In this document: piece after piece, positions 15,707-29,275 of the stretch
Position numbering within the stretch: the stretch's first letter is position 1
Layout of the letters: every line of letters begins with the position of its first letter
Assembly: GCA_963833575.1 (NCBI GenBank)
Contig: CAWHXY010000008.1
Location: forward strand, 139,379 to 203,378
Length of the DNA stretch: 64,000 nucleotides
DNA from: Candidatus Bathyarchaeota archaeon
GTDB taxonomy: Archaea; Thermoproteota; Bathyarchaeia; Bathyarchaeales; Bathycorpusculaceae
Direction of reading: 5' to 3'
Translations under genes and position numbers: made by a program
The notes under the pieces: generated by a model
Database searches by the model: none
What the model was told of the DNA's origin: nothing
Seen by the model: only the letters and a program-made list of their open reading frames with translations

Positions 15707-16795
15707 TTACCTTGTAATTTTAGCCTGCCGCACCGTTTCTAAACAATCTTTAGCTTCACTATTATTTGCAAAATATCGCCTAACAGGCTCCAATATATCT
15801 GCAAGTTCGGTTGCAACGCCATTCTTCAAGTCCATCGGATGAAGTTTACCTTCTGCGTAGACTGATTCGAGCTCTTGGAAGCTTTGAAGCTGTATGGTTC
15901 CTCCAAATTTTGCTGGACGCTCAATTGTGAAGACTGGTTTTTCTCGGAAGATAATGTATTTACAAATGTCAAGTATTGGATTAAATTTGATGGTTTTTTC
16001 CGGACAGAAAGCTTTTGCCATTTTCTGCTTTATTTCTTCAGGAGAATCATAGATGAAAATGCAAGTTTGAGGTTTGCTCTTTGACATTTTGGCTGAAGCT
16101 ACTGCTTCTTTTTCTTGCCCTTCTGGGATTGGCCAAATTTTAGGTTTCTCTAAACCCTGAAGCAAATGGTGGTGAACACATGTGGGTTTCCAGCATCCTA
16201 TTTTTTCACCTATCTCTCTTGCAACCATGTTTGCTTTTCGCTGGTCCATGCCTAACTGGCAAATTTTTACCTTCATATGAAAAATGTCTGCTACCTGCAT
16301 TGGAGTGTAGAGGTAGTCTGAAACGTAATGGGCCTCGGTTTCTTGTCTTCCCGCAATTTCTAATGTTCGGGTAGTCCGGGCTATGGTTAGGTTTTTTGCA
16401 ATGATGACGGTTTTAGCCCAGTAGTCAATGTCTTTGTAGAGTTCATCTGAATAGATAAATTCAACTTTGTCGCCAGGGACCCCAAGAGCCAACCACGAGT
16501 GTCTAAAAAGGTCGGCTGCTTTGCGGATAAGAGGCAGGTCGCCACCAAGTTTGTTATTTAGCCATGCGTGCCATGTTGCCAAAAAAGCTTTGAAATGGAT
16601 GCCTGCCTCAGCGAAGTCTTTCATTTTATACGCACAAATAACGCCAGTTCCCAAATGCGCCAAACCAGAAGGTTCCCAACCATTATAGGCTACGGGATGC
16701 TCTTCTTTTTCAAAAAGGCTACGCAAATCTTCTGGTGTAACAACTTCTTCCGTAGGCGGTCTGCAGATTAATTCAACTTTCTTTTCTATGTCCAA
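15707..16795 (-). CDS. tyrS: tyrosine--tRNA ligase (archaeal)
   Basis: YNGWEPSG.AHLG, YTPMQVADI, GMDQRK, KMSKS. Confidence 0.96.
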   Translation of the reverse strand: MDIEKKVELICRPPTEEVVTPEDLRSLFEKEEHPVAYNGWEPSGLAHLGTGVICAYKMKDFAEAGIHFKAFLATWHAWLNNKLGGDLPLIRKAADLFRHSWLALGVPGDKVEFIYSDELYKDIDYWAKTVIIAKNLTIARTTRTLEIAGRQETEAHYVSDYLYTPMQVADIFHMKVKICQLGMDQRKANMVAREIGEKIGCWKPTCVHHHLLQGLEKPKIWPIPEGQEKEAVASAKMSKSKPQTCIFIYDSPEEIKQKMAKAFCPEKTIKFNPILDICKYIIFREKPVFTIERPAKFGGTIQLQSFQELESVYAEGKLHPMDLKNGVATELADILEPVRRYFANNSEAKDCLETVRQAKITR

Positions 16796-17103
16796 ATTGC
16801 ACGCATCTTCCCTGTGTTTCCTATTTCTAATGTAAGTGTGGAACTTAAAAATTTAGTACATCTTTATGTATTTAGCTTATCTTTGGTTCAAGTTTGCATT
16901 GTTTCCACTAGATAAATAAGAAATGATGGTTGTGGGATATGACAAGAAGAACAACAACAGATGGAATTGCCATTTTTGAACAGTTTGTTTTCGATTGCTT
17001 TTTTGATTTAGGGTTTGACAATGTATTCATTTGTTTTTTAGTTTAAATTAATTCACGTGAAATTTTATGTGTATTCATTAACCCGTGGGAAAAGGTCATT
17101 GAC

Positions 17104-17877
17104 TTAGTTAGTGGTCTTTCGATCCCTAAGCACCACAACAATAAACAAAACTGAAAGAAACAATGGCAAAATTGCTAACAAGGGAATCTCTGGAACGGTA
17201 GGCGTTGGAGTTAAGGTAGCTGTTGGAGTTAAGACAGGTGTTGATGATATTGTTGGGGTTGGATGAGGAGATGCAGTGATTGAAGTAGAAGTTGACCCGT
17301 TGGCTATGGTTATGGTTTGTGTGTTGCTCCAACCGCTTGATTGACCTGTAAAGTCTTCAGCACCATAAAGGGAATAAGGGGAAGGAACCGTTATCCAATA
17401 CCCTATTGTTGCTTCTACTTGAAAGTCCACTTCACCACCAGCAGTAACTTGGGTCCAAATTGGAGCGTATGAACCATTATACAGGGTCACCTCATAGCTG
17501 ATGACCGTGTATTCAGAATTACTCGCAGGAACCCATGTGGAAATTGTATTCCATTCGTTGCCGTTGCTGAAATGTCCTTCTTCCTGAACGTTGTACGTCA
17601 AGCTAAGTGTGGTGCCGTTCTCAAGAGCGTTCGCATTAAAAGCTTGGTTTAGAATCACAATCTGCACCGTGTCGTTGGCATACGTGTGCGTTACGGTCGC
17701 TCCAGTATCTGTATTTGTTGTGTTCACACTGTAAGATGATTAAATGTATGTTACACTAAACTCTGGAGCCGATGGTGTGGGTATCGACTGAGCAAATGCG
17801 GGTTTAACGATTATAAGACTTGAGACAGCTAAGAGAACAATAAGAATTAATGAGAAACTCTTGCTGATACTGCCCAT
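17104..17877 (-). pseudogene. surface protein (signal peptide, P/T-rich linker, PEF-CTERM-like anchor) with in-frame TAA at 17740-17742
   Basis: Frame opens at ATG 17877 (MGSISKSFSLILIVLLAVSS..AQSIPTPSAPEF), one stop, then continues into ORF 17104..17727 ending VPEIP-TM-RDRK. Confidence 0.8.
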
Positions 17878-17976
17878 GTTTAGTATTAGGAAACTGTAGA
17901 CGATAAAAGGCTGCTCGTAAAACTCTCTTGACTGAAATTAGTCAAATTTTCTTGACTTGGAGTGTTTACGATTGGA
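17874..17976 (-). promoter_or_regulatory. ~100-bp promoter/operator module, second copy at 24601-24703
   Basis: Near-identical from ATG through TTTTAT box and TTGACT-N6-AGTCAA palindrome. Confidence 0.8.
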
Positions 17977-18068
17977 GTTGAACTCAAACCCTCCGGCGAT
18001 TTAGATGGGGAATCAGATTGAACCCACACTCCTATGGAGACATCACATGCATTTCCCCTTTTTTTGTT

Positions 18069-18311
18069 CTAAGAAGAGTTCTGTTTTGTTTTTTTGCTTC
18101 TTAGCAGTTTCATATAGAACTTTCCAAATAAAGAGATAACCAAAACAATCCAAACAGAACTGATTCCAAATCTAAACACACCAAATGTGATTATGGAACT
18201 AGACAATAGGAACCCCAAGAATATGTCAAACAAAATAGAACCCAAAACTGCAACTGAAACATACTTTAGAGTACTCAGCATTTTAGAACGGGATGTTACG
18301 GGATTTTCCAT
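18069..18311 (-). CDS. small 2-TM protein ending RSKKTKQNSS
   Basis: two hydrophobic helices; TATA-like box ~36-42 nt upstream. Confidence 0.7.
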   Translation of the reverse strand: MENPVTSRSKMLSTLKYVSVAVLGSILFDIFLGFLLSSSIITFGVFRFGISSVWIVLVISLFGKFYMKLLRSKKTKQNSS

Positions 18312-18537
18312 CGAAACAATCTCTAATACTTACTTCTTTACACCTTGCTTAAAAGATTTTAAAAATCTCTGCTTTTCGCTTTTTGGAATTTTTGAACTTT
18401 TCCCTTTATTGAAGGGCGCCGAGCTGACATTGCTTAAGGATTTTTTCCGTCAAGATGGTAGGAGACTATACGCTCAACCGTGAGAAAAGGTTAGTCTATG
18501 GAGTTGCTGATTTTCTTCATTTTTCCAGCCGCCGATA

Positions 18538-19059
18538 TCACGTTGAAGTGAAAACTGGACGGTTAACATAGCGTAACCGCGAATGCAATGCTTCTACCCA
18601 ATCACTCTTACTTACGTTAAACGCTAGTTGGGCTTTGTGTATTGCTTTGCTTTCACTATCTGTTTCTGTTTCCGATGAGAAAATGAAGTCTGTCAGAAAA
18701 CGTATGTTCGTGGATTCCTTCAGTGCCTCTAATTGTTTTAGCTCTGCAAACGTTAGGTCAAGTTTGAAAACAATTTGGGTTTTCACATTACTTTTAAGGC
18801 TGATGGTTGTTTTCTTAGGAATTAGTTTGCCAAGATATAATTCTCCGTTGTCATTTCCCATGTAATTTATTTTAACGTCAAAATTGCTCAATTTCAGAAT
18901 TTTTTGTGACGTAACAAAAATATTAGACGTTGAGAACTTGCCTTCCAAATAGAAATCAAAAGCGAAATTAAATCCTGTACGAATGGCACCCCAATGTCTA
19001 CTTACAGAAAGAAAAGCAATATCTAGTAATACGTCCGAAATTTCAACATAAGCAGACAT
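18538..19059 (-). CDS. hypothetical protein
   Basis: 173-aa ORF with upstream TATA-like element. Confidence 0.6.
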   Translation of the reverse strand: MSAYVEISDVLLDIAFLSVSRHWGAIRTGFNFAFDFYLEGKFSTSNIFVTSQKILKLSNFDVKINYMGNDNGELYLGKLIPKKTTISLKSNVKTQIVFKLDLTFAELKQLEALKESTNIRFLTDFIFSSETETDSESKAIHKAQLAFNVSKSDWVEALHSRLRYVNRPVFTST

Positions 19060-19163
19060 GAAATTTCATCATTCTAAATAGATTTTGTATTACTTAATAA
19101 TTTTGCTATATATGGGAGGTACATCCAATCGTGGGAAAAGGGTCTGAGAGTAGAATTGGAAAG

Positions 19164-19812
19164 TTAGCTTCCAATATTAAGATTGATGGTTCTGTTGCCT
19201 GCTGGTGTGTAAACGTGGAAGTCGCCAGCGTAATATGTTGCGGGAAATTCGATTCCGTCGTTACCCCAAAAGTAATCTATTGTTACATAGTATGTGTGTT
19301 CATTTTCCAGATTAACAGAATAGACGTTATTGTTATAGGCTGATGGATTTGTTGAAAAAGTAAAAGTGCTTGTGGCATTGGTCTTTTCATCTGCAAATTT
19401 TATTTGGCGAACAATGTTTCCCATTTTATTTACGAATGCCCTGCCAGAAACAATAACTTTAGCACTTAAAACCGAAACAACACAAAGCGTTCTGCATCAA
19501 TCCTCGCCCTGCCGCTGTCACAATGACAGAGTAGTTGCCTGTGGGAGTAGAAGCTGGAGTATTCATAGTTAGAAGGCTCGTAAAGTTGGATGTTCCCACT
19601 TCTGGCTCAAAGATTATGCTTTCATTTGCTTGTGTCATATTACTTAGATTGCTCACTTGACCTGTAAGGTCTGAAATTTGACTATTTAGAGTTGATATTT
19701 TGTTATTATAGTAAACTATCGTTCCAGCAATTGCACTTACAAAAAGTATAACAACTAACAAAAATGAGGCTATTATTTTCTTATTCATTCTTACCGAATA
19801 AATCAATATCAT
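19164..19812 (-). pseudogene. membrane-anchored exported protein, frameshifted near 19485
   Basis: N-terminal TM + coiled coil (19459..19812); shifted frame CVVSVLSAKVIVSGRAFVNK joins ORF 19164..19424. Confidence 0.7.
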
Positions 19813-19990
19813 AAGTGCTTTTAGTTCTACTCATGGAACATACTGTTCCTTTCTTGGAACGCCGACAGGTAATTCAGGGTTGAACTCAAACCCTCCAGCG
19901 ATTTTAATTGGGGACTGGCTTGAACCCTCCAGTCAGTGGAGACATCACTCCGCATTTCCCATTTTTCAGGACCTTTGTTCCAAGATTATG

Positions 19991-20452
19991 TCAAAGTTGC
20001 AGTCTCATGCTGTGTCCGGGTTTGAAACCAAAGGTTTCATACAGCGATTTTCCTGCCTCTGAAGCATCAAGATTTACTCTGTCGTAGCCATGAGCCCTAC
20101 ACCAAGCTATGCCAGTTTCGACAATCAGTCGAGCTACACCTCTTCTCCTAAACTCCTTCTCCGTATACAAAGACATCAAATAAGGCACTTCCAAGAATCT
20201 GCTGATGGGCAAAGGCGGCTGTTCTCTAATCCAAATGCAACCACTACCTGCTACCTCCCCTTCCTCTGTTTTTGCGATGAAACCCACAAGTTTGTCCGAT
20301 GACAACTTTTCCCTAATCCACTCCAGCGTACGCTCTTCTGTTCCGGTCGCGGACATTACCCGTTCCGGATGAATATCACACCACAGACTCAATCTGTGCT
20401 TAACCAGAATCTCAGTATCATCTAGAGTAGCATATTGAATGTTAAATCTCAT
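19991..20452 (-). CDS. GNAT family N-acetyltransferase
   Basis: LYTEKEFRRRGVA, LDASEAGKSLYETFGF. Confidence 0.9.
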   Translation of the reverse strand: MRFNIQYATLDDTEILVKHRLSLWCDIHPERVMSATGTEERTLEWIREKLSSDKLVGFIAKTEEGEVAGSGCIWIREQPPLPISRFLEVPYLMSLYTEKEFRRRGVARLIVETGIAWCRAHGYDRVNLDASEAGKSLYETFGFKPGHSMRLQL

Positions 20453-20726
20453 AGCTAGACTTTTCCCAAATTATTCTTGATGATGAAATGGACAAGTTGA
20501 GTTTAAATCTTGTTCAAAACTGAACTAATGATAGTTCGTTTAGATTCAAGTTTAAATCATTTCAGGGACCAAACAAGAGAAAAACAGGGGTTGATTTGAA
20601 CCCCTAAGAGTGGAGATGTCACTTGCATTTCCCCTTTTTTGTTTAAACAGTTTGGCGCTCCAGTTTTTAAGTAAGGGCATGAATGCGATTTAGTTAGTAA
20701 CTTTCATGTGATTTGTTTACAACCTA

Positions 20727-21005
20727 CTATTTTTTCAATTCAATTAGCATTTTTAACACCAGTTTAAGTGCAGAGTCGTAGCCATCGCAATATTCTTTGC
20801 TCGGGTCTTTATCCGCATAGGTTCGCTCCACAATTTCTTTTCCAATGCCTTCATTAGTTAACTGGATTGAGCCTTCTTTAAGCCATATCAAAGCATCTAC
20901 ATACCCGTGTTCTGAGTCTGAAAGCTCATCTGTCACAGATGATTCTGCCTTCTGCCTGATTATTTCATCAATCTTTCCTTTTAACTCGTTCTCAACCTTG
21001 CTCAC
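20727..21005 (-). CDS. small helical protein with duplicated GY.xAL motif
   Basis: HGYVDALIW / DGYDSALKL; GGTGA SD upstream. Confidence 0.65.
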   Translation of the reverse strand: MSKVENELKGKIDEIIRQKAESSVTDELSDSEHGYVDALIWLKEGSIQLTNEGIGKEIVERTYADKDPSKEYCDGYDSALKLVLKMLIELKK

Positions 21006-21349
21006 TTCTTTTCACCAATTCGATTACCTGTTTGTCATAGAGTTAAATAGCTGCCGGCTAACCCAGCGCGCTTCACTAAACCTTAACAAAAAACGCTTGT
21101 TAGAACCTTGCTCTTTTCTGTCAACTTTCAGCAAACTATGCAAAGCGCTAACTGGCTTTAGACATTTCGTATACTCCCGTTGTATTAACTATAAGAATTA
21201 AGAAAACTACCGTCCGATTCATACGATAGGGTTTGACAATGTATTCGATGAATTTTTAGCTTAAATTCTTCTATGAATTCAATGAAAAATAAATCGGTAA
21301 GCTTAGGTTTGATTTGAACTCCTAAGGACAAGTAGAGATTAACCTTCCT

Positions 21350-21850
21350 TTAATAATAGTCGAAGAACAATTTTCCTGTGATTTTTCTAGTCGCAGTTTT
21401 AATATCTTCCGCTTTAATGGTTTTTCTTCCAGTCTGCATAGCATAATCGAGTGCTTCTTTAGCAATCTTGACTCCGATTTCTTCAAGTGCTTTTGCAAGT
21501 TCTTTTGCTGCTGCTTCACTTACTCTGTCAGCACCAGCTTTCTTACACAGCCTGTGCATGGGCGCCACAGCTATTTCTAATTCAGTCATAACGACATCTC
21601 CAAGTCCTTTTTTGTTTTTTGTTAACGCAACCCCTGCTATTATTATTTCAAGCTTCGGCGTTTCCATTGGTTTTTCAAGCTTTTTCATTTCTATAGGCGT
21701 TTCAAGCTTTGGTTTTTCAGTTGGCATTTCAAGCTTAGAAACTTCTGTTTTTGGAGCCTTAAGCATCTTTAACTGATTTTTTGATGTTTCGGTATCTTTC
21801 TCGGTTTTTTTCTTGTCGTTAGACAAAGTTAGTCTCCTTGATATAGTCAT
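21350..21850 (-). CDS. archaeal histone variant, possibly with 87-aa N-terminal extension (alternative start 21589)
   Basis: AP..R..KKAGADRVS..A...LEE...IA.EA...GRKTIKAEDI HMf-type fold. Confidence 0.9.
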   Translation of the reverse strand: MTISRRLTLSNDKKKTEKDTETSKNQLKMLKAPKTEVSKLEMPTEKPKLETPIEMKKLEKPMETPKLEIIIAGVALTKNKKGLGDVVMTELEIAVAPMHRLCKKAGADRVSEAAAKELAKALEEIGVKIAKEALDYAMQTGRKTIKAEDIKTATRKITGKLFFDYY

Positions 21851-22054
21851 TAAAATAGATTAATAATATTGTGTTTTGAGTTATCAAGTATTTTCAACTT
21901 TGGTGGGAATCCGATTGACCCAGTCAGGTAGAGATGTCACCGGCAAACTCCATTTTTTTTCTGGCATTTAGTTACTATTTGGAGCTGGTGTATTAGTCCT
22001 GTCTCGAATCTGAGTAGCTTTTAATAGACAGAATAATGCCCTATCATACATAGA

Positions 22055-22396
22055 GTGGAAGACTTGCTGTTTAAACACAAGAGCGTTGTTAAAGTCGACT
22101 TGGCGGATTTAGATGGCGAAAAAGAGAATCTCGCCAATTTCTTGCGTAGCCACTTCAAATTAAATTCATCAATAATTCCTAAAGGCTTAGAACTAAATAT
22201 GGACGATGTTTCGGCTTACTCATTGGCAAGAATGGTTAACAAGTTTGTTTATCACAAGAATCTAAACAGCACACATTGGGTTACAGTGGAAAATAACACG
22301 GTCAAAATCAATAAGTTCAAGGGCACCACTAAGAAAAAAGAAAAACACGAGAAAGGCATGCCCCATCAAAACATTACACAAAGTTGGGGACTATGA
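22055..22396 (+). CDS. ribosomal protein eL22-like protein
   Basis: Pattern VDL..LANFL...LARMVNKFVYHKNL..HWV resembles eL22 by eye. Confidence 0.5.
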   Translation: MEDLLFKHKSVVKVDLADLDGEKENLANFLRSHFKLNSSIIPKGLELNMDDVSAYSLARMVNKFVYHKNLNSTHWVTVENNTVKINKFKGTTKKKEKHEKGMPHQNITQSWGL

Positions 22397-22484
22397 AACG
22401 CTTTTCTTCACTATTGCGTTGTCTTAGGTGTAGATATACCCTCCAAACAGTGAGAACTTCACCCGCATTTCCACTTTCTTAGTT

Positions 22485-22787
22485 CTAAGAAGGGTTCTGT
22501 TTTGTTTCTTTGCTTCTTTGAAGCCTAAAGATAAAGTAGAGATTTACTGCAAGAACAACCCAAAAGAACAGAAATGGCGCATTCAGCACATTTGAATAAG
22601 CGACTGGATAGAAAAACATGTTAGGCGAGTAATGAGGAGAAATAACAATAGGAGACCAAATACTTACAACATTATTGTTGCCCCATTGATTTATAGTGTT
22701 CCAAACGCCATAACTAAAAACAACATAAAGTAAACTCAACAAGAGATTAGCCAAAAGCATTAACTTTAGCTGTTTTGACGTATGCAC
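22485..22787 (-). CDS. small 2-TM protein ending RSKETKQNPS
   Basis: two TM helices; 3' end shared with 18069..18311. Confidence 0.7.
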   Translation of the reverse strand: MHTSKQLKLMLLANLLLSLLYVVFSYGVWNTINQWGNNNVVSIWSPIVISPHYSPNMFFYPVAYSNVLNAPFLFFWVVLAVNLYFIFRLQRSKETKQNPS

Positions 22788-22984
22788 TCAACATAGGCAA
22801 TTGTTTTGACCTTGCTTAAAAGATTTTTTAAATCAAGCGTATAGGAGACTGTACATCCAAGCGTGAGAAATGCATGCTTTGGAAGCAATTGGTTGTCCAG
22901 AAAACTGGACTAAACTTTCTTAGAGTTATTTTTTGGTCTACAAAAGAGGGATTAAATAACTTGGATACATGACAACTTTGAGGC

Positions 22985-23842
22985 ATGGCAAACGTGGAAG
23001 ACCAAAGTCAGGTTGAACGTGACAAGCAACAGGCTGAAATATTTGATGCATTAGGACATCCAACACGTATACAAATACTAAAAGTTCTAAGAGAAGGAGC
23101 AGTTGGTTTTGCAGAATTGAAGAAGAAAACAGCCATTGAAAGTAGTGGACACCTACAGCACCACTTAACCAAACTCAATGGATTGATAAAGACCGATGAA
23201 TATGGCAAATACTGTTTATCCGATGAAGGAAAAGATGCGTTGCTTACCGTTCAAGCAGTAGAGAATGCATCGCAAAAAGACGAAACAAAAGAGAAGGTGA
23301 ATAGACGATATTTTGGCAAAAGATTAAGCTTAAAACCAGTTGCCATTATACTCATGACTCTATTAATTGCAAGTACAGCAGTTGCAATATATGAATACAA
23401 TCAAATAGTACTTCTTAACAACAGAATTAATGATTCGAACAATGGATTAGTCCTGAACAATGCAGGTTATTTGCCGGGGTCTAAACTATACGTCATTTCA
23501 GCAAACGCCAGTTATGAAACAATTAATGGAAAAGGATGTTTTGTAGTTGATGCCACTGTGAGAAATGACTACACTTCCCAAGAACCACCACCGATGGATA
23601 ATTCGGGCATTAACAGTACAGGAACAGCTTATTTCGGCTTAACCGCTATAATGTACGAAGGACACAAGGTAATCTCTTCAGAAGATATAACTAGTGTCGG
23701 TTCTTCACCATTAGGAGTACCTCAGAATAGCTTAGAAAGCGGTCAAACTGACGTAATCCAAATTGATATGGCAACGTCAGACCATACCATAGATAGCTAT
23801 TCAATATTCCTCATTGCGATTGCAGGGTACCCAATCCCATAG
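22985..23842 (+). CDS. ArsR-type wHTH + TM + extracytoplasmic domain protein
   Basis: FDALGHPTRIQIL, LQHHLTKL, Y.LS.EG; single TM about aa 120-135. Confidence 0.8.
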   Translation: MANVEDQSQVERDKQQAEIFDALGHPTRIQILKVLREGAVGFAELKKKTAIESSGHLQHHLTKLNGLIKTDEYGKYCLSDEGKDALLTVQAVENASQKDETKEKVNRRYFGKRLSLKPVAIILMTLLIASTAVAIYEYNQIVLLNNRINDSNNGLVLNNAGYLPGSKLYVISANASYETINGKGCFVVDATVRNDYTSQEPPPMDNSGINSTGTAYFGLTAIMYEGHKVISSEDITSVGSSPLGVPQNSLESGQTDVIQIDMATSDHTIDSYSIFLIAIAGYPIP

Positions 23843-23902
23843 TAAATGGGAGAAATGGATAAAAATAAAGACTTCTCGCAATAGTTTCTTGACTAAAACT
23901 AA

Positions 23903-24604
23903 TCAAACTTTCTTGACTGAAATTAGTTCCTTACTATTCTGATTTCTTTTTCTAACTGTTATCAAGTATCCTGTTCCAAAAGCTACTATTAACGCGCCGA
24001 TTATCAGTAAATATGTGATAGTTGTGTTCCAAGCTGCTCGTAAACTGAAATAGTAATCTGGAGGATAATAATTGAGGCTTGTTGCTAAATTTATAGCCAA
24101 TATGGATAGCCCAAGTAGCATTATAGTTGCTCCTCCAATTATTATGATATAACCAACTTTACTTCTAACTTTTGATCCGGCAATTATTCCAGAGATAATA
24201 AAAAACACACCAGCCATCAAAAAAGAGAAGAAACTAAGTGCCCAATATGTTTGAAAATCGCTCCAACCTATTCCGAATTCACGTGTGCCTATTAGTGCTA
24301 CAGCCAATTTGTACGCTTCAATATTGATTAAGGTGAACCCAACAGTTATTGATGCGTAACTCCATTTGTTTCTGATATTTCTTAAATAAACTGTTCCTAT
24401 AACTACAAAAAATGCTCCAGCTATAAGACAGAAAGAAATAATCGGAACGGCAAATTCGTAAAAAGCAGTATAATTGAGATAATTACTATTGTTGATTTGC
24501 AATTCAAGCAAGAACGTAGCTATTGCAAAAAAAACCAGTAAAAAGCCTGTAACTGAAGACACGTAACCCCATTTATTTCTAACCTTCATTTCCATGGTTT
24601 CCAT
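23903..24604 (-). CDS. 6-TM membrane protein with internal repeats
   Basis: repeated (V/I)RNKW(G/S)Y / VRSKVGY units. Confidence 0.75.
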   Translation of the reverse strand: METMEMKVRNKWGYVSSVTGFLLVFFAIATFLLELQINNSNYLNYTAFYEFAVPIISFCLIAGAFFVVIGTVYLRNIRNKWSYASITVGFTLINIEAYKLAVALIGTREFGIGWSDFQTYWALSFFSFLMAGVFFIISGIIAGSKVRSKVGYIIIIGGATIMLLGLSILAINLATSLNYYPPDYYFSLRAAWNTTITYLLIIGALIVAFGTGYLITVRKRNQNSKELISVKKV

Positions 24605-24719
24605 GCTTATATTAGGAAACTATAGGCGATAAAAGGCTGCTCATAAAACTCTCTTGACTGAAATTAGTCAAAGTTTCTTGACTTAGCTTATTTACGCTTG
24701 GAGTGCTCCCTACAGGAAG

Positions 24720-24992
24720 TTAATGATAATATTTCCATAAAAATAGAATAGTTCCAATTATTCCGCCTATAAAAGAGAAAATGCCAAAAATTATGATGGA
24801 AGTACCAGCCCAATATGCTGGTGTGATTCCGTTTCTCATGGGACCAAACATTGAATTAAACATCGAGTTATTGGGCTGTGTGTACGTATAGCCAAAAAGA
24901 GCAATAACCGAGGAGCCAACGATAAACGAGAAAAACCCTGTAGCAACAGCCATTAAACTAATAGTGCGAAGTCTGCCCTGCTTCAATTCCAT
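24720..24992 (-). CDS. small 2-TM membrane protein
   Basis: two hydrophobic helices. Confidence 0.65.
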   Translation of the reverse strand: MELKQGRLRTISLMAVATGFFSFIVGSSVIALFGYTYTQPNNSMFNSMFGPMRNGITPAYWAGTSIIIFGIFSFIGGIIGTILFLWKYYH

Positions 24993-25175
24993 TTTTCGCC
25001 TTCAGCGATTGAGATGATAGAACTATTTGTGGCTTAAATGGGCATCTGAGAATCCATAGGCATAGCAAGTAGGGGAACGCATTGAACCAACATCGAAGTG
25101 AAGACATCACCCGCATTTCAATTTTTGTTTGATTTTTGCCTGAATTTGGAAATTTAGTACATTTTTTTTTCAAAT

Positions 25176-25430
25176 TTACCATATTTTAGGCTTAATCCTT
25201 TTTGTCAAACGAATCATGTATCTTTTCTTATCGACATTTTTTATGCGGCTGTCAATTAGTCCTTGTTTTTTTGCTTCTTCTATAACTTGGTCAAATGAAA
25301 CGGGCTGAGGATTTTCTGTTTTTTTGTTTGTTATAATTATCCAGATTTCGTGATATCTATTTTTGTTTTCTTCAAGAAACTCTCTAAGCGCTGTCAACCT
25401 TTTGGGTTCAAAAGTCACTGATTCAGCCAA
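25176..25430 (-). CDS. YdeI/OmpD-associated-like N-terminal domain protein
   Basis: LREFLEEN..EIWI...S....EEA..GLIDS.......Y..RLT.R. Confidence 0.6.
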   Translation of the reverse strand: MAESVTFEPKRLTALREFLEENKNRYHEIWIIITNKKTENPQPVSFDQVIEEAKKQGLIDSRIKNVDKKRYMIRLTKRIKPKIW

Positions 25431-25553
25431 GATTTAACACTTCCATTTTTTACGGGCTGTTTGTCTCCCATGTAACCTAACACTTAACCTCATTGCTGAG
25501 CGTTGCTTTTAGCTTGGCTAAGTTCTCTCGGCATGGGATTTTTTAGCGCCCGC

Positions 25554-25666
25554 GTCTCACCTGTTCCATAATTGGGTAGAACCCAAATCGTCATAGGCGC
25601 AAGATTTGTGTTTCTTACGTTCCCTCTGTTGAGTCCGTCGTTATGGGTGCTCAATATCGGTGAGAC
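25554..25666 (+). ncRNA. candidate multibranch structured RNA
   Basis: closing stem GTCTCACC/GGTGAGAC with three internal hairpins. Confidence 0.35.
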
Positions 25667-25715
25667 AATAAGAGAAGGTGAAGGGGTGAATTTATTTACT
25701 TTCTTTCTTGCAAGG

Positions 25716-27191
25716 TTAAGTTGAAGGGCCAGAATTGGTTTTTGACATTTTGGGCTGGATTGGCTCTTTTTTCTTGCGTTTTGCAACAGTTGAAATGGCG
25801 GCAACTATTGCTATGACTATTACAACGATAATAACGGCTAGAATCATGTGTTCGTTTGAAATGCCGACTAAGACCGAAGCACTTGTTGTTTGTGTCCACC
25901 ACTGGTTCACTGAAGATGAATTGAGAGGTGATACATCATTTTGCAGGTCTATCTTGGTAAAACCACCCTGCTGCCCAGCTGGAAGCGTAAGAACCTGATT
26001 TGTTTGTACAGTTATGGTGTTATTTGTGATTGGATCGATGAAAACCACCGGTCCATCGATAACCTGAACCGCCGTCTCTGAACTCGAAACATTCACCGTA
26101 TACTCTGTGTTTTCTCCCGCAAGTTCTCCCTGCGGTACGACTACAAGGTGCGACACTGTTTCTTTTACGTATGCGATTCCATTTGGTATTAGGAAAGCGC
26201 CTCCCTCGACAACAAGAGCAACTGCTGCCGCTGGCAAAATTGCTTCGCTAAAAACCGCAACTGCTATTGTCGCGTCTATTGGCATCGAAATTAGCATATC
26301 TTTAAACTCGCTGTAACCGTTTGGGAAAATAGTGCCTGTCGACACTGGCGGATAAACTAAATATGCGATCTGATTATCTGGGGCAGGTTCGGAAGTAAGA
26401 GATACCCACCCTGCATCGCTGTTTGCTCCTAAGTACACGGTTCCTCCTTGATTAGGCGAGTTAAAACCGATAATTCCATTGTCGCCTGTCAGAATTTCAG
26501 TTCCAGTGGGTATTTGACCTGAAGACAAAGTCGTATTTCCATTTGCTGTTTTGGAGTATGCTGACTCTTTAATTGATCCAATGTTACCGTAAAAGCGGCT
26601 GGCCAATGGCTGACCTGTCGTTGTTGGAGAAGAAGTAGGAGTCAGGGTTGGCGCTGAAGTTGTTGAGCTAGTTCGGGTAACGACTATGCCGTTTTGATCT
26701 GTTGTTTCAGAGGTTCCAGTTAGGGTTGCCGTTATGATGTCAGTTGTGAAGGTTCCAACTAAGTGTTCCTGAATCTGGCTTGCTTGCTCATCAACCGAGA
26801 AGCTTTAGCTTGAAACAGTTCCTGTAAACTCAATAGAGTCACCACCCGCAGGCGGAACGCCAGATATGCCGTACGTTTGCCAGTATGTGTTGTCAGTAAC
26901 CCATTTTGAGGGATTAAAATAAAGAATAATTGTAATTTGACTGCCTTGTTGAGTTATGTCCATTGCAAACGTGGCAGTTACATCATTCATTCGAGCGCTT
27001 GAATCGGAAGGATCCATGTCATAATAAGTACCAGAGACTGAGCTACTCCATGTTCCACTTAGATCTCTAGCGGGCGTGAGCTGAGCAAACAGGGGAGTTA
27101 CCTCAATCGAAAATAATAATAAAGCACAAATTGATAGGGTCGCTATTTTAGTAGAATTAAAGAATGATTTAGAAATTCTATTTTTTTGCAT
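25716..27191 (-). pseudogene. exported FecR-like/S-T-rich membrane-anchored protein with in-frame TAA at 26805-26807
   Basis: ORFs 26805..27191 and 25716..26606 are in one frame, joined by 66 stop-free codons. Confidence 0.8.
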
Positions 27192-27418
27192 GTAATTCCA
27201 GCTATAGCCCTAATAATGTTTTTCAGATGTTTGCTGGTGCGAATAAATAACTTATGAATTATGAAGCAGTCTTACCCAAACTGAAGACCAATCAAGGAAA
27301 ATCGAATTTGCTTTCTTTCCGTAAAAGAAGTACCCATCCCGTTTTATGAGGTTCAAACGTCCATCCACGGGTAAAGATTTAAGTGGGACAATTATGATTT
27401 ATGTGCAAGGTAATTTAA

Positions 27419-27580
27419 ATGCCAACTCACGGAAGTTTATCTAAAGCTGGAAAAGTAAGGTCTCAAACGCCTAAAATCCAAGGGACGCCAAAAACAGCGC
27501 CAAGCCCAAAAACCCGAAACAGACGCAATTATGAGAAACGGACGATTCTGCAAAGGAAAGCCGGCCAAAACTGGATGTAA
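27419..27580 (+). CDS. rps30e: 30S ribosomal protein eS30 (53 aa, below ORF-track cutoff)
   Basis: [20 protein letters not shown]...RNRRNYEKR. Confidence 0.95.
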
Positions 27581-27664: not shown

Positions 27665-29275
27665 TTGGTATATTCGACATTGACAGATAAAAAAGCGCTT
27701 AGAGAAATCATAACCACGCTTATGGAAATGCCTAATCCCACGCGTGAGGATGCTAATCGGCTAAAAATAAAAACTACAGGCAAATACCAACTTGAAGAGA
27801 TTCCTTCAAACGCCGATTTAATTTGTCTTCTAACCGCAAAAGAAACAAAACGGCTCTTGCCTATTTTGAGAAGAAAAACTACCCGAGGCATTTCGGGCGT
27901 AACAGTTATCGCTACCATGACTAAACCTTATCCGTGCCCACAGCCTGAACCATGCGCTTATTGCCCAGGCGGACCAACCCAAGGCTCTCCGCAAAGCTAC
28001 ACAGGACATGAACCAGCAGCCATGCGTGGAAGCCAAAACAACTTTGACCCCTACCAGCAAGTCATGAGCCGAATTGAACAACTCACAGCCATCGGGCACA
28101 AAGTAGACAAAATAGAATTAATCATCATGGGTGGAACATTCCCAGCTACACCCACGGAATATCAAACTTGGTTTATCCAGCGCTGCCTTGACGCGATAAC
28201 ATGCAAAACGTCAGCAAGTTTGGAGGAGGCGAAGGCAAACGCTGAAGTGAGCAAAACCCGCAATGTCGGCATAACTGTGGAGACGCGTCCTGACTGGGCA
28301 AAGCAACCCCACGTTGACGCGATGCTTGACATGGGAGTTACGCGAATTGAGCTTGGCGTCCAAAACCCAGATGATGAAATTTACCGTTTAGTCGGAAGGA
28401 CACACACTGTAGCCGATGTGATCGATGCAACGCGTATAGCCAAGGACGCTGGACTGAAAATTGGTTATCACTTAATGCCTGGAATGCCCGGGTCTAACCC
28501 CAAAAAAGACATTATAGCATTTAAAAAAGTCTTTACTGATTCAACTTTCAAACCTGACATGATAAAAATTTACCCGTGCCTTTGCATAGCCGGTACGAAA
28601 GCAAACGAATGGTATCAACAAGGTAGCTACGAGCCCTACACAACAGAACAAGCTTCAGAAGTAATAGCTGAAATCAAAAAATTCATCCCGCCATGGATAA
28701 GAGTAATGCGTGTTCAACGCGATATTCCGTCACGCCTTATTTTGGCTGGAGTTAAGAAAAGCAATCTTCGTCAACTTGCTAATGACGAACTTCATCAGCA
28801 AGGAGGCAAATGTCAATGCATCCGGTGTAGAGAGGTTGGACATAGACTGGCAGTTGACCATATGAAACCGGACTTGGAAAAAGTCAAAATCCAATCCCTC
28901 ATCTACGAGGCTTCAGAAGGCAAAGAAGTCTTCATTTCCGTGGAAGATTTTGAAAACAAAATTCTCTTAGGCTACTTACGCATGCGCGTTCCATCCCCAA
29001 AGGCTCACAGACCAGAAATCACTGAGACCCCCTCAGCGATTGTTCGGGAGCTTCACGTTTATGGTCCACTTGTTCCAGTTGGAAAGCATGCGGCAGGCGC
29101 TTGGCAACATAAAGGGTTTGGCGCAGAATTGCTAAAGGAAGCTGAACGCATGGCACGAGAAGATTTTGGTTTGAAAAAGCTTTTAGTCATAAGTGCATTA
29201 GGAACAAGAAGATATTACAGGCGTTTCGGGTACGAACGCGACGGAGTTTACGTTTCCAAAAAACTGGAGAATTAA
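27665..29275 (+). CDS. elp3: tRNA uridine(34) carboxymethylation radical SAM/GNAT enzyme Elp3
   Basis: CP.P.PCAYCPGG, ETRPD, CIRCRE, RELHVYG, QHKGFG. Confidence 0.95.
   Translation: MVYSTLTDKKALREIITTLMEMPNPTREDANRLKIKTTGKYQLEEIPSNADLICLLTAKETKRLLPILRRKTTRGISGVTVIATMTKPYPCPQPEPCAYCPGGPTQGSPQSYTGHEPAAMRGSQNNFDPYQQVMSRIEQLTAIGHKVDKIELIIMGGTFPATPTEYQTWFIQRCLDAITCKTSASLEEAKANAEVSKTRNVGITVETRPDWAKQPHVDAMLDMGVTRIELGVQNPDDEIYRLVGRTHTVADVIDATRIAKDAGLKIGYHLMPGMPGSNPKKDIIAFKKVFTDSTFKPDMIKIYPCLCIAGTKANEWYQQGSYEPYTTEQASEVIAEIKKFIPPWIRVMRVQRDIPSRLILAGVKKSNLRQLANDELHQQGGKCQCIRCREVGHRLAVDHMKPDLEKVKIQSLIYEASEGKEVFISVEDFENKILLGYLRMRVPSPKAHRPEITETPSAIVRELHVYGPLVPVGKHAAGAWQHKGFGAELLKEAERMAREDFGLKKLLVISALGTRRYYRRFGYERDGVYVSKKLEN

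Follow-up and report, generated by a model that had tools for sequence, protein, structure and literature searches.

A repeated arm-and-core element among short genes of a Bathyarchaeota genome: a candidate attachment-site junction of small mobile gene units

The locus considered here raises the question of what a degenerate repeat is doing among the short genes that lie between tyrS and the genes for S30e and ELP3 in the genome of a Candidatus Bathyarchaeota archaeon (assembly GCA_963833575.1; contig CAWHXY010000008.1, positions 139,379 to 203,378, a stretch of 64,000 nucleotides (nt) that we refer to as the window). According to the open reading frame (ORF) listing, the interval consists of ~17 short ORFs, mostly on the minus strand. 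A preliminary description made from the letters of the window had viewed it as an integron-like cassette array with an att-like site of its own and a recombinase acting in trans. Our analysis partly supports this interpretation, which was right in kind (mobile units, their own att-like site, a recombinase in trans) and wrong as regards attC and the locality of the system. We consider it rather probable that each repeat is an attachment-site junction left behind by site-specific integration.

The repeated site itself is real. A sequence-only covariance model of 26 copies of this genome (R1; alignment A3), applied at E ≤ 1 to the complete 64 kb of the window, yields exactly six matches, each of them on the minus strand and within 17999-25129, while the full element stands far above chance in nhmmer searches, with E-values down to 1e-17. 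The copies at 17999..18065 (R1 61.1 bits, E 7.7e-18, and nhmmer) and 19901..19967 (51.6 bits) are each followed by a downstream module. Those at 20586..20640 (41.5 bits) and 21899..21959 (27 bits) close the cassettes of a 92-amino-acid (aa) and a 113-aa gene, respectively; the copy at 22427..22480 (30.8 bits) is located directly 3' of the gene for a 100-aa membrane protein; and that at 25067..25129 (44.7 bits) is the first element of the array and starts 12 nt inside the left of two direct repeats that are described below. Six of the seven long copies reported previously are thus recovered by the model, whereas the one at 21306 is a degenerate copy (21297..21343, minus strand) that is recognized by eye in alignment A1 and missed by R1 at E ≤ 1. 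The statement that nearly every gap between genes holds such a site was, however, too strong, as there are six or seven elements for ~16 gaps.

Read on the minus strand, the element is composed of an A-run, GGGGAAATGC, GGGTGAYRTCTCCAC, ~8 variable nt, GGTTCAAT and ~15 nt more. A conserved arm of ~35-45 nt (GGGRAWTGC-GGGTGAYRTCTCCAC) precedes a spacer, which is followed by a core resembling a tRNA T-loop and by a tail; in the subfamily of the window the core is GGGTTCAATYCGATTCCCC. The 13-mer alone is a weak signal, with 18 matches at ≤3 mismatches against 10.4 expected. An inverted repeat, CTCC(A)/(T)GGAG with a loop of 3-8 nt, is kept in ~22/26 copies as judged by eye. The downstream module, which resembles GCCGGAGGGTTTGAGTTCAAC, was located by pattern search at 17974..17998 (alignments A2 and A3) and, in a second copy, at 19877..19900 (family D3), both on the minus strand; family D3 also confirms the 26-bp extension that had been noted as common to the copies at 18007 and 19910. 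This module is present in 11/27 aligned copies of this genome, and we read it as a conserved arm at the start of the next unit.

The site had been described as lying usually just 3' of a stop codon. In this genome there is indeed a tendency of this kind, since a same-strand open frame of at least 60 codons ends within 120 nt upstream of 20/29 copies, compared with 10/29 in a mirror-image control, but in other genomes the figures are 27/45 and 23/45. Such a placement, together with an A-run directly before a T-arm-like and acceptor-like segment, an arm that is conserved across an order, and the inverted repeat with its variable loop (~22/26 copies, by eye, as above), would suit an RNA element, namely a tRNA-like minihelix that mimics T-arm and acceptor and acts in 3' untranslated regions as a processing or stability signal. 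Cleavage by RNase P that leaves an encoded oligo-A tail would be one example. Yet no stable fold was obtained on either strand for 10/10 full copies (z-scores -1.55 to +0.78), RNAalifold returned no consensus structure, the number of Rfam matches in the window at the gathering threshold was zero, and the orientation bias is nearly gone outside this genome. We therefore regard an RNA element as distinctly improbable.

The same folding results bear on the possibility of a classical integron cassette array with divergent attC sites. The co-oriented short genes, each followed by a site, would agree with such an array, and archaeal integrons exist according to a published account (10.1101/2022.02.06.479319). 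However, the ten copies show no attC-like, imperfectly palindromic fold on either strand within the above range of z-scores, no RYYYAAC/GTTRRRY core pair is visible by eye, and the core is derived from tRNA. Neither was an intI gene or attI site encountered beside the array: the genome has five matches to PF00589 (Phage_integrase), a profile search placed none of them in the window, and no IntI-specific test was made. The analogy with integrons and attC consequently fails both on the missing fold and on the missing adjacent integrase, and the classical integron reading, to which we attach next to no probability, is effectively refuted.

A number of other candidates were considered and rejected. 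A C/D-box small RNA (sRNA) or K-turn was set aside because the D box is not conserved among the copies, a small peptide ORF within the element because indels of lengths not divisible by three disrupt its frame, and a -1 frameshift site at the A-run because the stop codon comes before it (all three by eye). A resemblance to the ORB box of replication origins was rejected on account of the differing motif order and spacing and of the far too numerous copies. Folding of the entire element, as RNA or as single-stranded DNA, gave no signal.

The relationship of the element to tRNA genes is seen in other genomes, from which 45 aligned copies end in a regular tRNA T-arm and acceptor 3' strand, sometimes including CCA. 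The tail corresponds to the 3' end of the adjacent tRNA: in genome G053, an element 610 bp downstream of tRNA-Leu(tag) has as its tail the last ~25 nt of that tRNA, while in G001 an element 920 bp downstream of tRNA-Ala(tgc) carries a tRNA-Ala tail. In the present genome, an element (C4:465303-465243) lies 2.7 kb downstream of tRNA-Leu(tag) (C4:467980-468067), and its tail is that of tRNA-Leu in a diverged form. The T-loop provided an anchor for 61 of the 74 copies, and a match was defined as at least 12/15 positions of a tRNA acceptor segment. By this measure 12/61 tails match, as against 7/1220 shuffled tails, the tRNAs concerned being Leu(tag), Leu(cag), Ala(tgc), Cys, Pro(ggg) and Arg(tcg). 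In relatives, the DNA inserted at tRNA-Leu(tag) and tRNA-Ala(tgc) thus terminates distally in a direct repeat of the tRNA 3' segment, co-oriented with the intact tRNA; the same applies to C4:465-468 kb of this genome, though not to the window. An RNA element predicts neither tails that change with the neighbouring tRNA nor cassette homology that ends at the element, as detailed below.

Twelve tRNA-Leu(tag) loci from other genomes were inspected, seven of them picked for a listed element nearby and five as presumed empty. One to five co-oriented elements were found downstream of the tRNA at 9/12 loci: five in 10 kb in G012, four in 4.3 kb in G021, two in G013, and one each in G047, G053, G060, G071, G003 and G001. 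These loci also carry other tRNA-Leu 3' fragments, some with 50-81 nt of identity, and a second arm type that is fused to tRNA-Leu 3' fragments and contains the palindrome GGCGATATCGCCA. Hence, several element families use tRNA-Leu(tag). The second arm type is made up of an A-run and the palindrome (C)TGGCGATATCGCCA(G), as observed at L065:3234-3308, L062:2438-2514 and L110:~1440-1524, and it marks the far end of integrase-bearing elements.

Insertion of single units can be read off precisely from pairs of related genomes. Relative to G012, G021 possesses an extra 664-bp unit, consisting of a 135-aa ORF and an element, exactly at the CCA end of tRNA-Leu, and the sequence 3' of this unit is the one that directly follows tRNA-Leu in G012. 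Likewise, a 1.6-kb unit is inserted exactly at the tRNA-Leu 3' end in G047 as compared with G003, so that both pairs provide an empty site with breakpoints at the repeat. To judge from these alignments, the pattern is that expected from serial site-specific integration in which the newest unit would lie beside the tRNA.

Cassettes of the window recur in these arrays, and their homology ends at the repeats, which bears out the earlier proposal of an att-like site that bounds mobile gene units. The cassette of the 92-aa gene (20610..21108, minus strand; gene at 20727-21005 plus arm motif) is, over 21108-20610, 89% identical to L066:8242-8740 within the tRNA-Leu array of G012. Its homology begins 46 nt past the upstream element and stops after the CTCCAC of the downstream arm, beyond which the spacer and core of the two genomes differ. 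Relatives of this cassette are present in 17 other genomes, and by their coordinates they are adjacent to an element at six places in five of these. The cassette of the 113-aa gene (21958..22436; gene at 22055-22396 on the plus strand) has elements at both ends: the segment 22436-21958 extends from within the tail of one element up to the A-run of the following one and is 83% identical to L062:2885-3364 of the G021 tRNA-Leu array, with further element-adjacent relatives in G044, G010 and G070. More generally, units of 0.37-0.7 kb with intact arms recur at 83-93% identity in many genomes and in differing contexts.

The absence of the element from the flanks of the array, as claimed previously, holds inside the window, but the element is not specific to this locus. 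Iterated nhmmer searches of the whole assembly (2.75 Mb, 8 contigs) reveal 26 copies at E ≤ 1e-3 and 29 at E ≤ 1e-2, which sit in five clusters plus singletons. In the ORF listing (not Pfam), the cargo of these clusters comprises secreted proteins, transporters, flavodoxin-like proteins and a zinc-ribbon protein. Within the genus, R1 detects the element in 44/61 genomes with 0-28 copies each, some one-contig genomes being without it, and within the order it is present in 45/81 genomes and 30/46 genera. A BLAST search with one copy against 16 genomes of other genera gave no hits; since the profile later found the family throughout the order, this blank was a limit of sensitivity. Such a patchy but wide distribution fits the expectation for mobile DNA. 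A known terminator or insertion sequence (IS) end spread over the genome had been put forward as an outcome that would speak against mobile gene units; the element is spread in this manner, yet no known terminator or IS end was matched among those testable.

Dispersal, variable copy number and absence from some complete genomes would also be consistent with a self-contained element similar to a miniature inverted-repeat transposable element (MITE) that inserts alone beside genes, as would the pairs of elements only 130-330 bp apart that occur in this genome. However, the DNA gained at tRNA loci is a gene plus an element and not the element alone, the tail equals the 3' end of the local tRNA, and no orthologous sites were found that differ by the ~65-nt element alone. 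Furthermore, no pair in the inverted-repeat list flanks an element, and neither terminal inverted repeats nor target-site duplications were seen by eye in the flanks of single copies. We consider a MITE-like element very improbable.

If the repeats are attachment-site junctions, small units, presumably in circular form, would have the T-loop region of a tRNA gene as their recombination partner or, alternatively, might dock on the core of a resident element. A unit would comprise one to a few cargo genes, an arm and a core, and no integrase. Newly arriving units would push older ones outward and so build arrays in a single orientation, gene(s)-element-gene(s)-element, and the chemistry may be performed in trans by an integrase, perhaps of the tyrosine family, that is encoded elsewhere. 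The occurrence of a tRNA-derived core behind tRNAs points to ordinary tRNA-targeting integrase chemistry with tandem accretion, which is a known process. It is possible, though we propose it tentatively and would not call it probable, that the whole amounts to an integron-like system of the order, in which cassettes with a ~45-nt arm and a T-loop core dock at tRNA 3' ends and at each other, are moved in trans by an unlinked integrase, and shuffle accessory genes without attC or IntI.

This leads to the question as to which recombinase would be involved. In line with the proposal of a recombinase in trans, the interval has none (Pfam finds no recombinase domain in 20 of its ORFs), and the related arrays that were sampled contain cargo genes: the ten largest ORFs taken from five tRNA-Leu arrays of other genomes are metabolic or transport genes with no integrase among them, namely transaldolase, transketolase halves, a CobB-like protein, an AAA protein, NRAMP, an ABC ATPase, a GT4 glycosyltransferase and a FeoB-like protein. 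The five Phage_integrase matches of the genome belong to two families. Family A, of which this genome has three copies, is located beside tRNA-Cys at a contig end in this genome and directly beside tRNA-Leu(tag) in many relatives, and in G069 the element directly adjoins a family-A integrase gene. Integrase-bearing elements at tRNA-Leu carry at their far ends an A-run and GGCGATATCGCCA (G017, 14 kb; G067, 33 kb; G055, 23 kb), and this GGCGATATCGCCA is found at the same distance from the T-loop as GGTGATGTCTCCA is in our element; by our own count from the alignment, the two boxes agree at 10/13 positions. The alignment of R1 to the far-end site of G017 is weak (E 0.21). Because of this weak alignment, and because the presence of family A does not track that of the element, its link to the element is a lead and not a finding. 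Separately, two contigs in G000 start with an integrase gene that is convergent with or overlaps tRNA-Cys and tRNA-Gln (C1:152-1542 and C2:256-1704), and the assembly therefore breaks inside integrated elements.

The position of family-A genes directly beside tRNA-Leu(tag) in many genomes also lends itself to a different explanation, whereby the repeats are footprints of decay: full-size, integrase-bearing elements would have integrated serially at tRNAs and subsequently lost most of their DNA, the small units never having moved alone. The tRNA-Leu island of this genome does contain a stretch that is 72% similar to the region of G067 comprising the tRNA tail and the 3' end of the integrase gene, and the general model is documented for tycheposons (10.1101/2020.12.28.424599). 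Against it stand the intact arms of the 0.37-0.7-kb units at 83-93% identity in many genomes and contexts, and the lack of any integrase or integrase fragment among the ten largest ORFs sampled in the five arrays. In addition, 20-28 copies per genome would necessitate many independent decays that all kept the same arm. We judge decay to be unlikely, while granting it some weight.

All element copies of the window are contained in an 8.3-kb island (16862..25141). G003 and no fewer than 11 further genomes lack this island; there the promoter region of tyrS directly adjoins the orthologue of an 84-aa gene (25176..25430, minus strand) that forms the conserved flank on the other side, and alignments to these empty-site genomes break at 16850-16873 and 25141-25186. 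Moreover, a contig of the peat metagenome X2 (~95% identical) joins 16861 to 25199. In view of this empty site in relatives and in X2, the segment 16862-25141 is an insertion. The gene order of the tyrS-ELP3 interval is accordingly variable in relatives, as the preliminary description would have it; the island breakpoints are, by contrast, in a 21-bp direct repeat and not in the element, even if one element starts 12 nt inside that repeat. The tyrS-proximal copy of the repeat, ATGTACTAAATTTTTAAGTTC, lies at 16841..16861 (minus strand), within what is likely the TATA region of tyrS, and is single in G003, while the distal copy at 25142..25162 (minus strand) is 18/21 identical, its three mismatches being confined to the final 8 nt. 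Elsewhere in the genome the 21-bp repeat has only one match, with three mismatches, on another contig.

In G044, which is the nearest relative as far as this locus is concerned, the position is occupied by a different island of 5.4 kb that lacks the element; all that it shares with the window is ~60 nt and, at the tyrS end, another dispersed repeat. Because G044 holds a different island there, the tyrS promoter site is, on this comparison, an insertion hot spot. As a recurrent docking site of the element it was rejected, since 29 other genomes have no element within 1.5 kb of tyrS. The event that brought the island to tyrS does not fit the recombination geometry of the element itself. At its tyrS-proximal end the island also bears a dispersed repeat of ~75-100 nt (16944-17049, and again at 21227-21267), of which this genome has at least 12 copies at 79-89% identity, and a related copy is present at the same end of the G044 island.

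Several observations weigh against the repeats being attachment-site junctions of small mobile units. The island is bounded by a 21-bp repeat unrelated to the core of the element, and its first element is on the wrong side of this repeat for a simple serial model. None of the 29 copies of this genome reaches 12/15 positions to any tRNA tail (the best attains 10), and the cores of all six window copies match no tRNA, with no tRNA gene in the 64-kb window according to ARAGORN. Some left cassette boundaries lie 215-370 nt beyond the upstream element, and a recent 445-bp duplication (C6:81869-82313 and C7:628783-628343, 95% identity) is not bounded by elements, as it ends in an element and begins inside a neighbouring ORF. 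No circular form or excision joint was seen at the elements, the material being assembled contigs only, from four sequencing runs. Finally, the check for co-occurrence with a recombinase that had been suggested gave no association: in the 61 genomes of the genus, the presence of neither integrase family follows that of the element. For family A, element and integrase occur together in 39, the element only in 5, the integrase only in 14 and neither in 3; the corresponding figures for family B are 34, 10, 13 and 4. G012, a genome that is 95% complete, possesses nine elements and no family-A match at E ≤ 1e-10. In X1, two 'go-back' or loose-end records are accounted for by the paralogous loci on C7 and C6.

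As regards known systems, a T-loop class of tRNA integration sites of tyrosine integrases was reportedly described by Williams in 2002 for autonomous elements. The elements studied here resemble it in that the block of identity runs from the T-stem and T-loop to the tRNA 3' end, which would follow from integrase binding to the T-arm dyad and crossover in the 7-nt loop, but they were linked to no integrase. Integron cassettes are similar in being promoter-poor one-gene units that each possess their own recombination site, are in one orientation at the docking site and depend on a recombinase encoded outside, and in the existence of 'empty' units. In contrast to integron cassettes, there is no attC hairpin, no pair of R''/R' cores and no adjacent intI; docking is at a tRNA 3' end instead of attI, and the site is conserved in sequence and not palindromic.

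The tycheposons of Prochlorococcus (Hackl et al., 10.1101/2020.12.28.424599) integrate at tRNA genes and leave partial tRNAs as flanking attachment sites. There, too, older elements are displaced into the island whenever another integrates at the same site, the islands are strewn with partial tRNAs and degenerate remnants, and the cargo consists of adaptive genes. Tycheposons, however, carry their own tyrosine recombinase and a replication module, while the present units are mostly 0.1-3 kb and without a recombinase. Furthermore, every partial tRNA here is fused to a ~45-nt arm that is conserved, some arrays are remote from tRNA genes and have cores without a matching tRNA, and the host is an archaeon. 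The accretion of cis-mobilizable elements and the ssrA-specific islands, for example of Dehalococcoides (PMC3146451), likewise feature recombinase-less, att-flanked units in tandem at one tRNA or tmRNA gene, and each unit keeps a short direct repeat of the 3' end of the gene. In our case, by contrast, tens of small units per genome are present at several loci and have an arm motif in common. The ssrA-specific islands of Dehalococcoides are said to be kilobases to tens of kilobases long, with few per genome.

The features that differ from known systems are therefore the arm on every partial tRNA, the small, numerous and integrase-less units, and the arrays away from tRNAs. We found no description of such a system in these archaea in the literature, which is a thin basis for claiming its absence from print. 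If the units do move as cassettes, sediment archaea would own a modular platform for gene exchange that arose separately from integrons, and part of the turnover of accessory genes (secreted proteins, transporters, metabolic genes) would be explained. The arm motif is a practical marker for such islands in metagenome-assembled genomes. The claim is also directly testable, since arm plus core and tRNA-Leu are known as the substrates and genes for candidate integrases adjoin the same tRNA in relatives (for example in G067, G017 and G069:C26).

The gene content given in the preliminary description (tyrS, S30e, GNAT and others) was confirmed by Pfam. The interval is flanked by the conserved tyrS (15707..16795, minus strand; PF00579; 84-91% aa identity to relatives) and by S30e (27419-27580) and ELP3 (27665-29275), both identified by Pfam; an atlas look-up assigns ELP3 to an archaeal type. 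Cargo genes with a Pfam match encode a GNAT acetyltransferase, which has an element on either side (19991..20452, minus strand; PF00583, E 1.8e-12), a histone-fold protein and a DUF7347 helix-turn-helix (HTH) protein, while many small membrane or secreted proteins of the interval have no match.

Two secreted-protein genes (17877..17104 and 27191..25716, each in one frame throughout) are each broken by a single in-frame TAA, at 17740-17742 and 26805-26807, respectively. The paralogue of the former on C7 is an unbroken 274-aa ORF, the orthologue of the latter in G003 is an unbroken 559-aa ORF (L055:3820-5499), and both genes of the window are probably pseudogenes or assembly errors. The adjacent minus-strand ORFs 19164-19424 and 19459-19812 (86 and 117 aa, in different frames) may be one gene broken by a frameshift, and C4:112027-112462 is a relative of this pair at 82% identity. 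A 95-nt repeat at 17884-17978, 24610-24704 and 23845-23939, which is also present on C4, C6 and C7, precedes paralogous genes for secreted or membrane proteins; with its TTGACT/AGTCAA dyads and TATA-like box, it looks like a shared promoter and operator region. Finally, a family of membrane proteins of 80-100 aa is encoded at 18069-18311 and 22485-22787 of the window and at C6:81969-82259 and C7:628393-628683. The 3' ends of these genes are conserved at the DNA level and run directly into the element, and two copies of the family are 95% identical across 445 bp.

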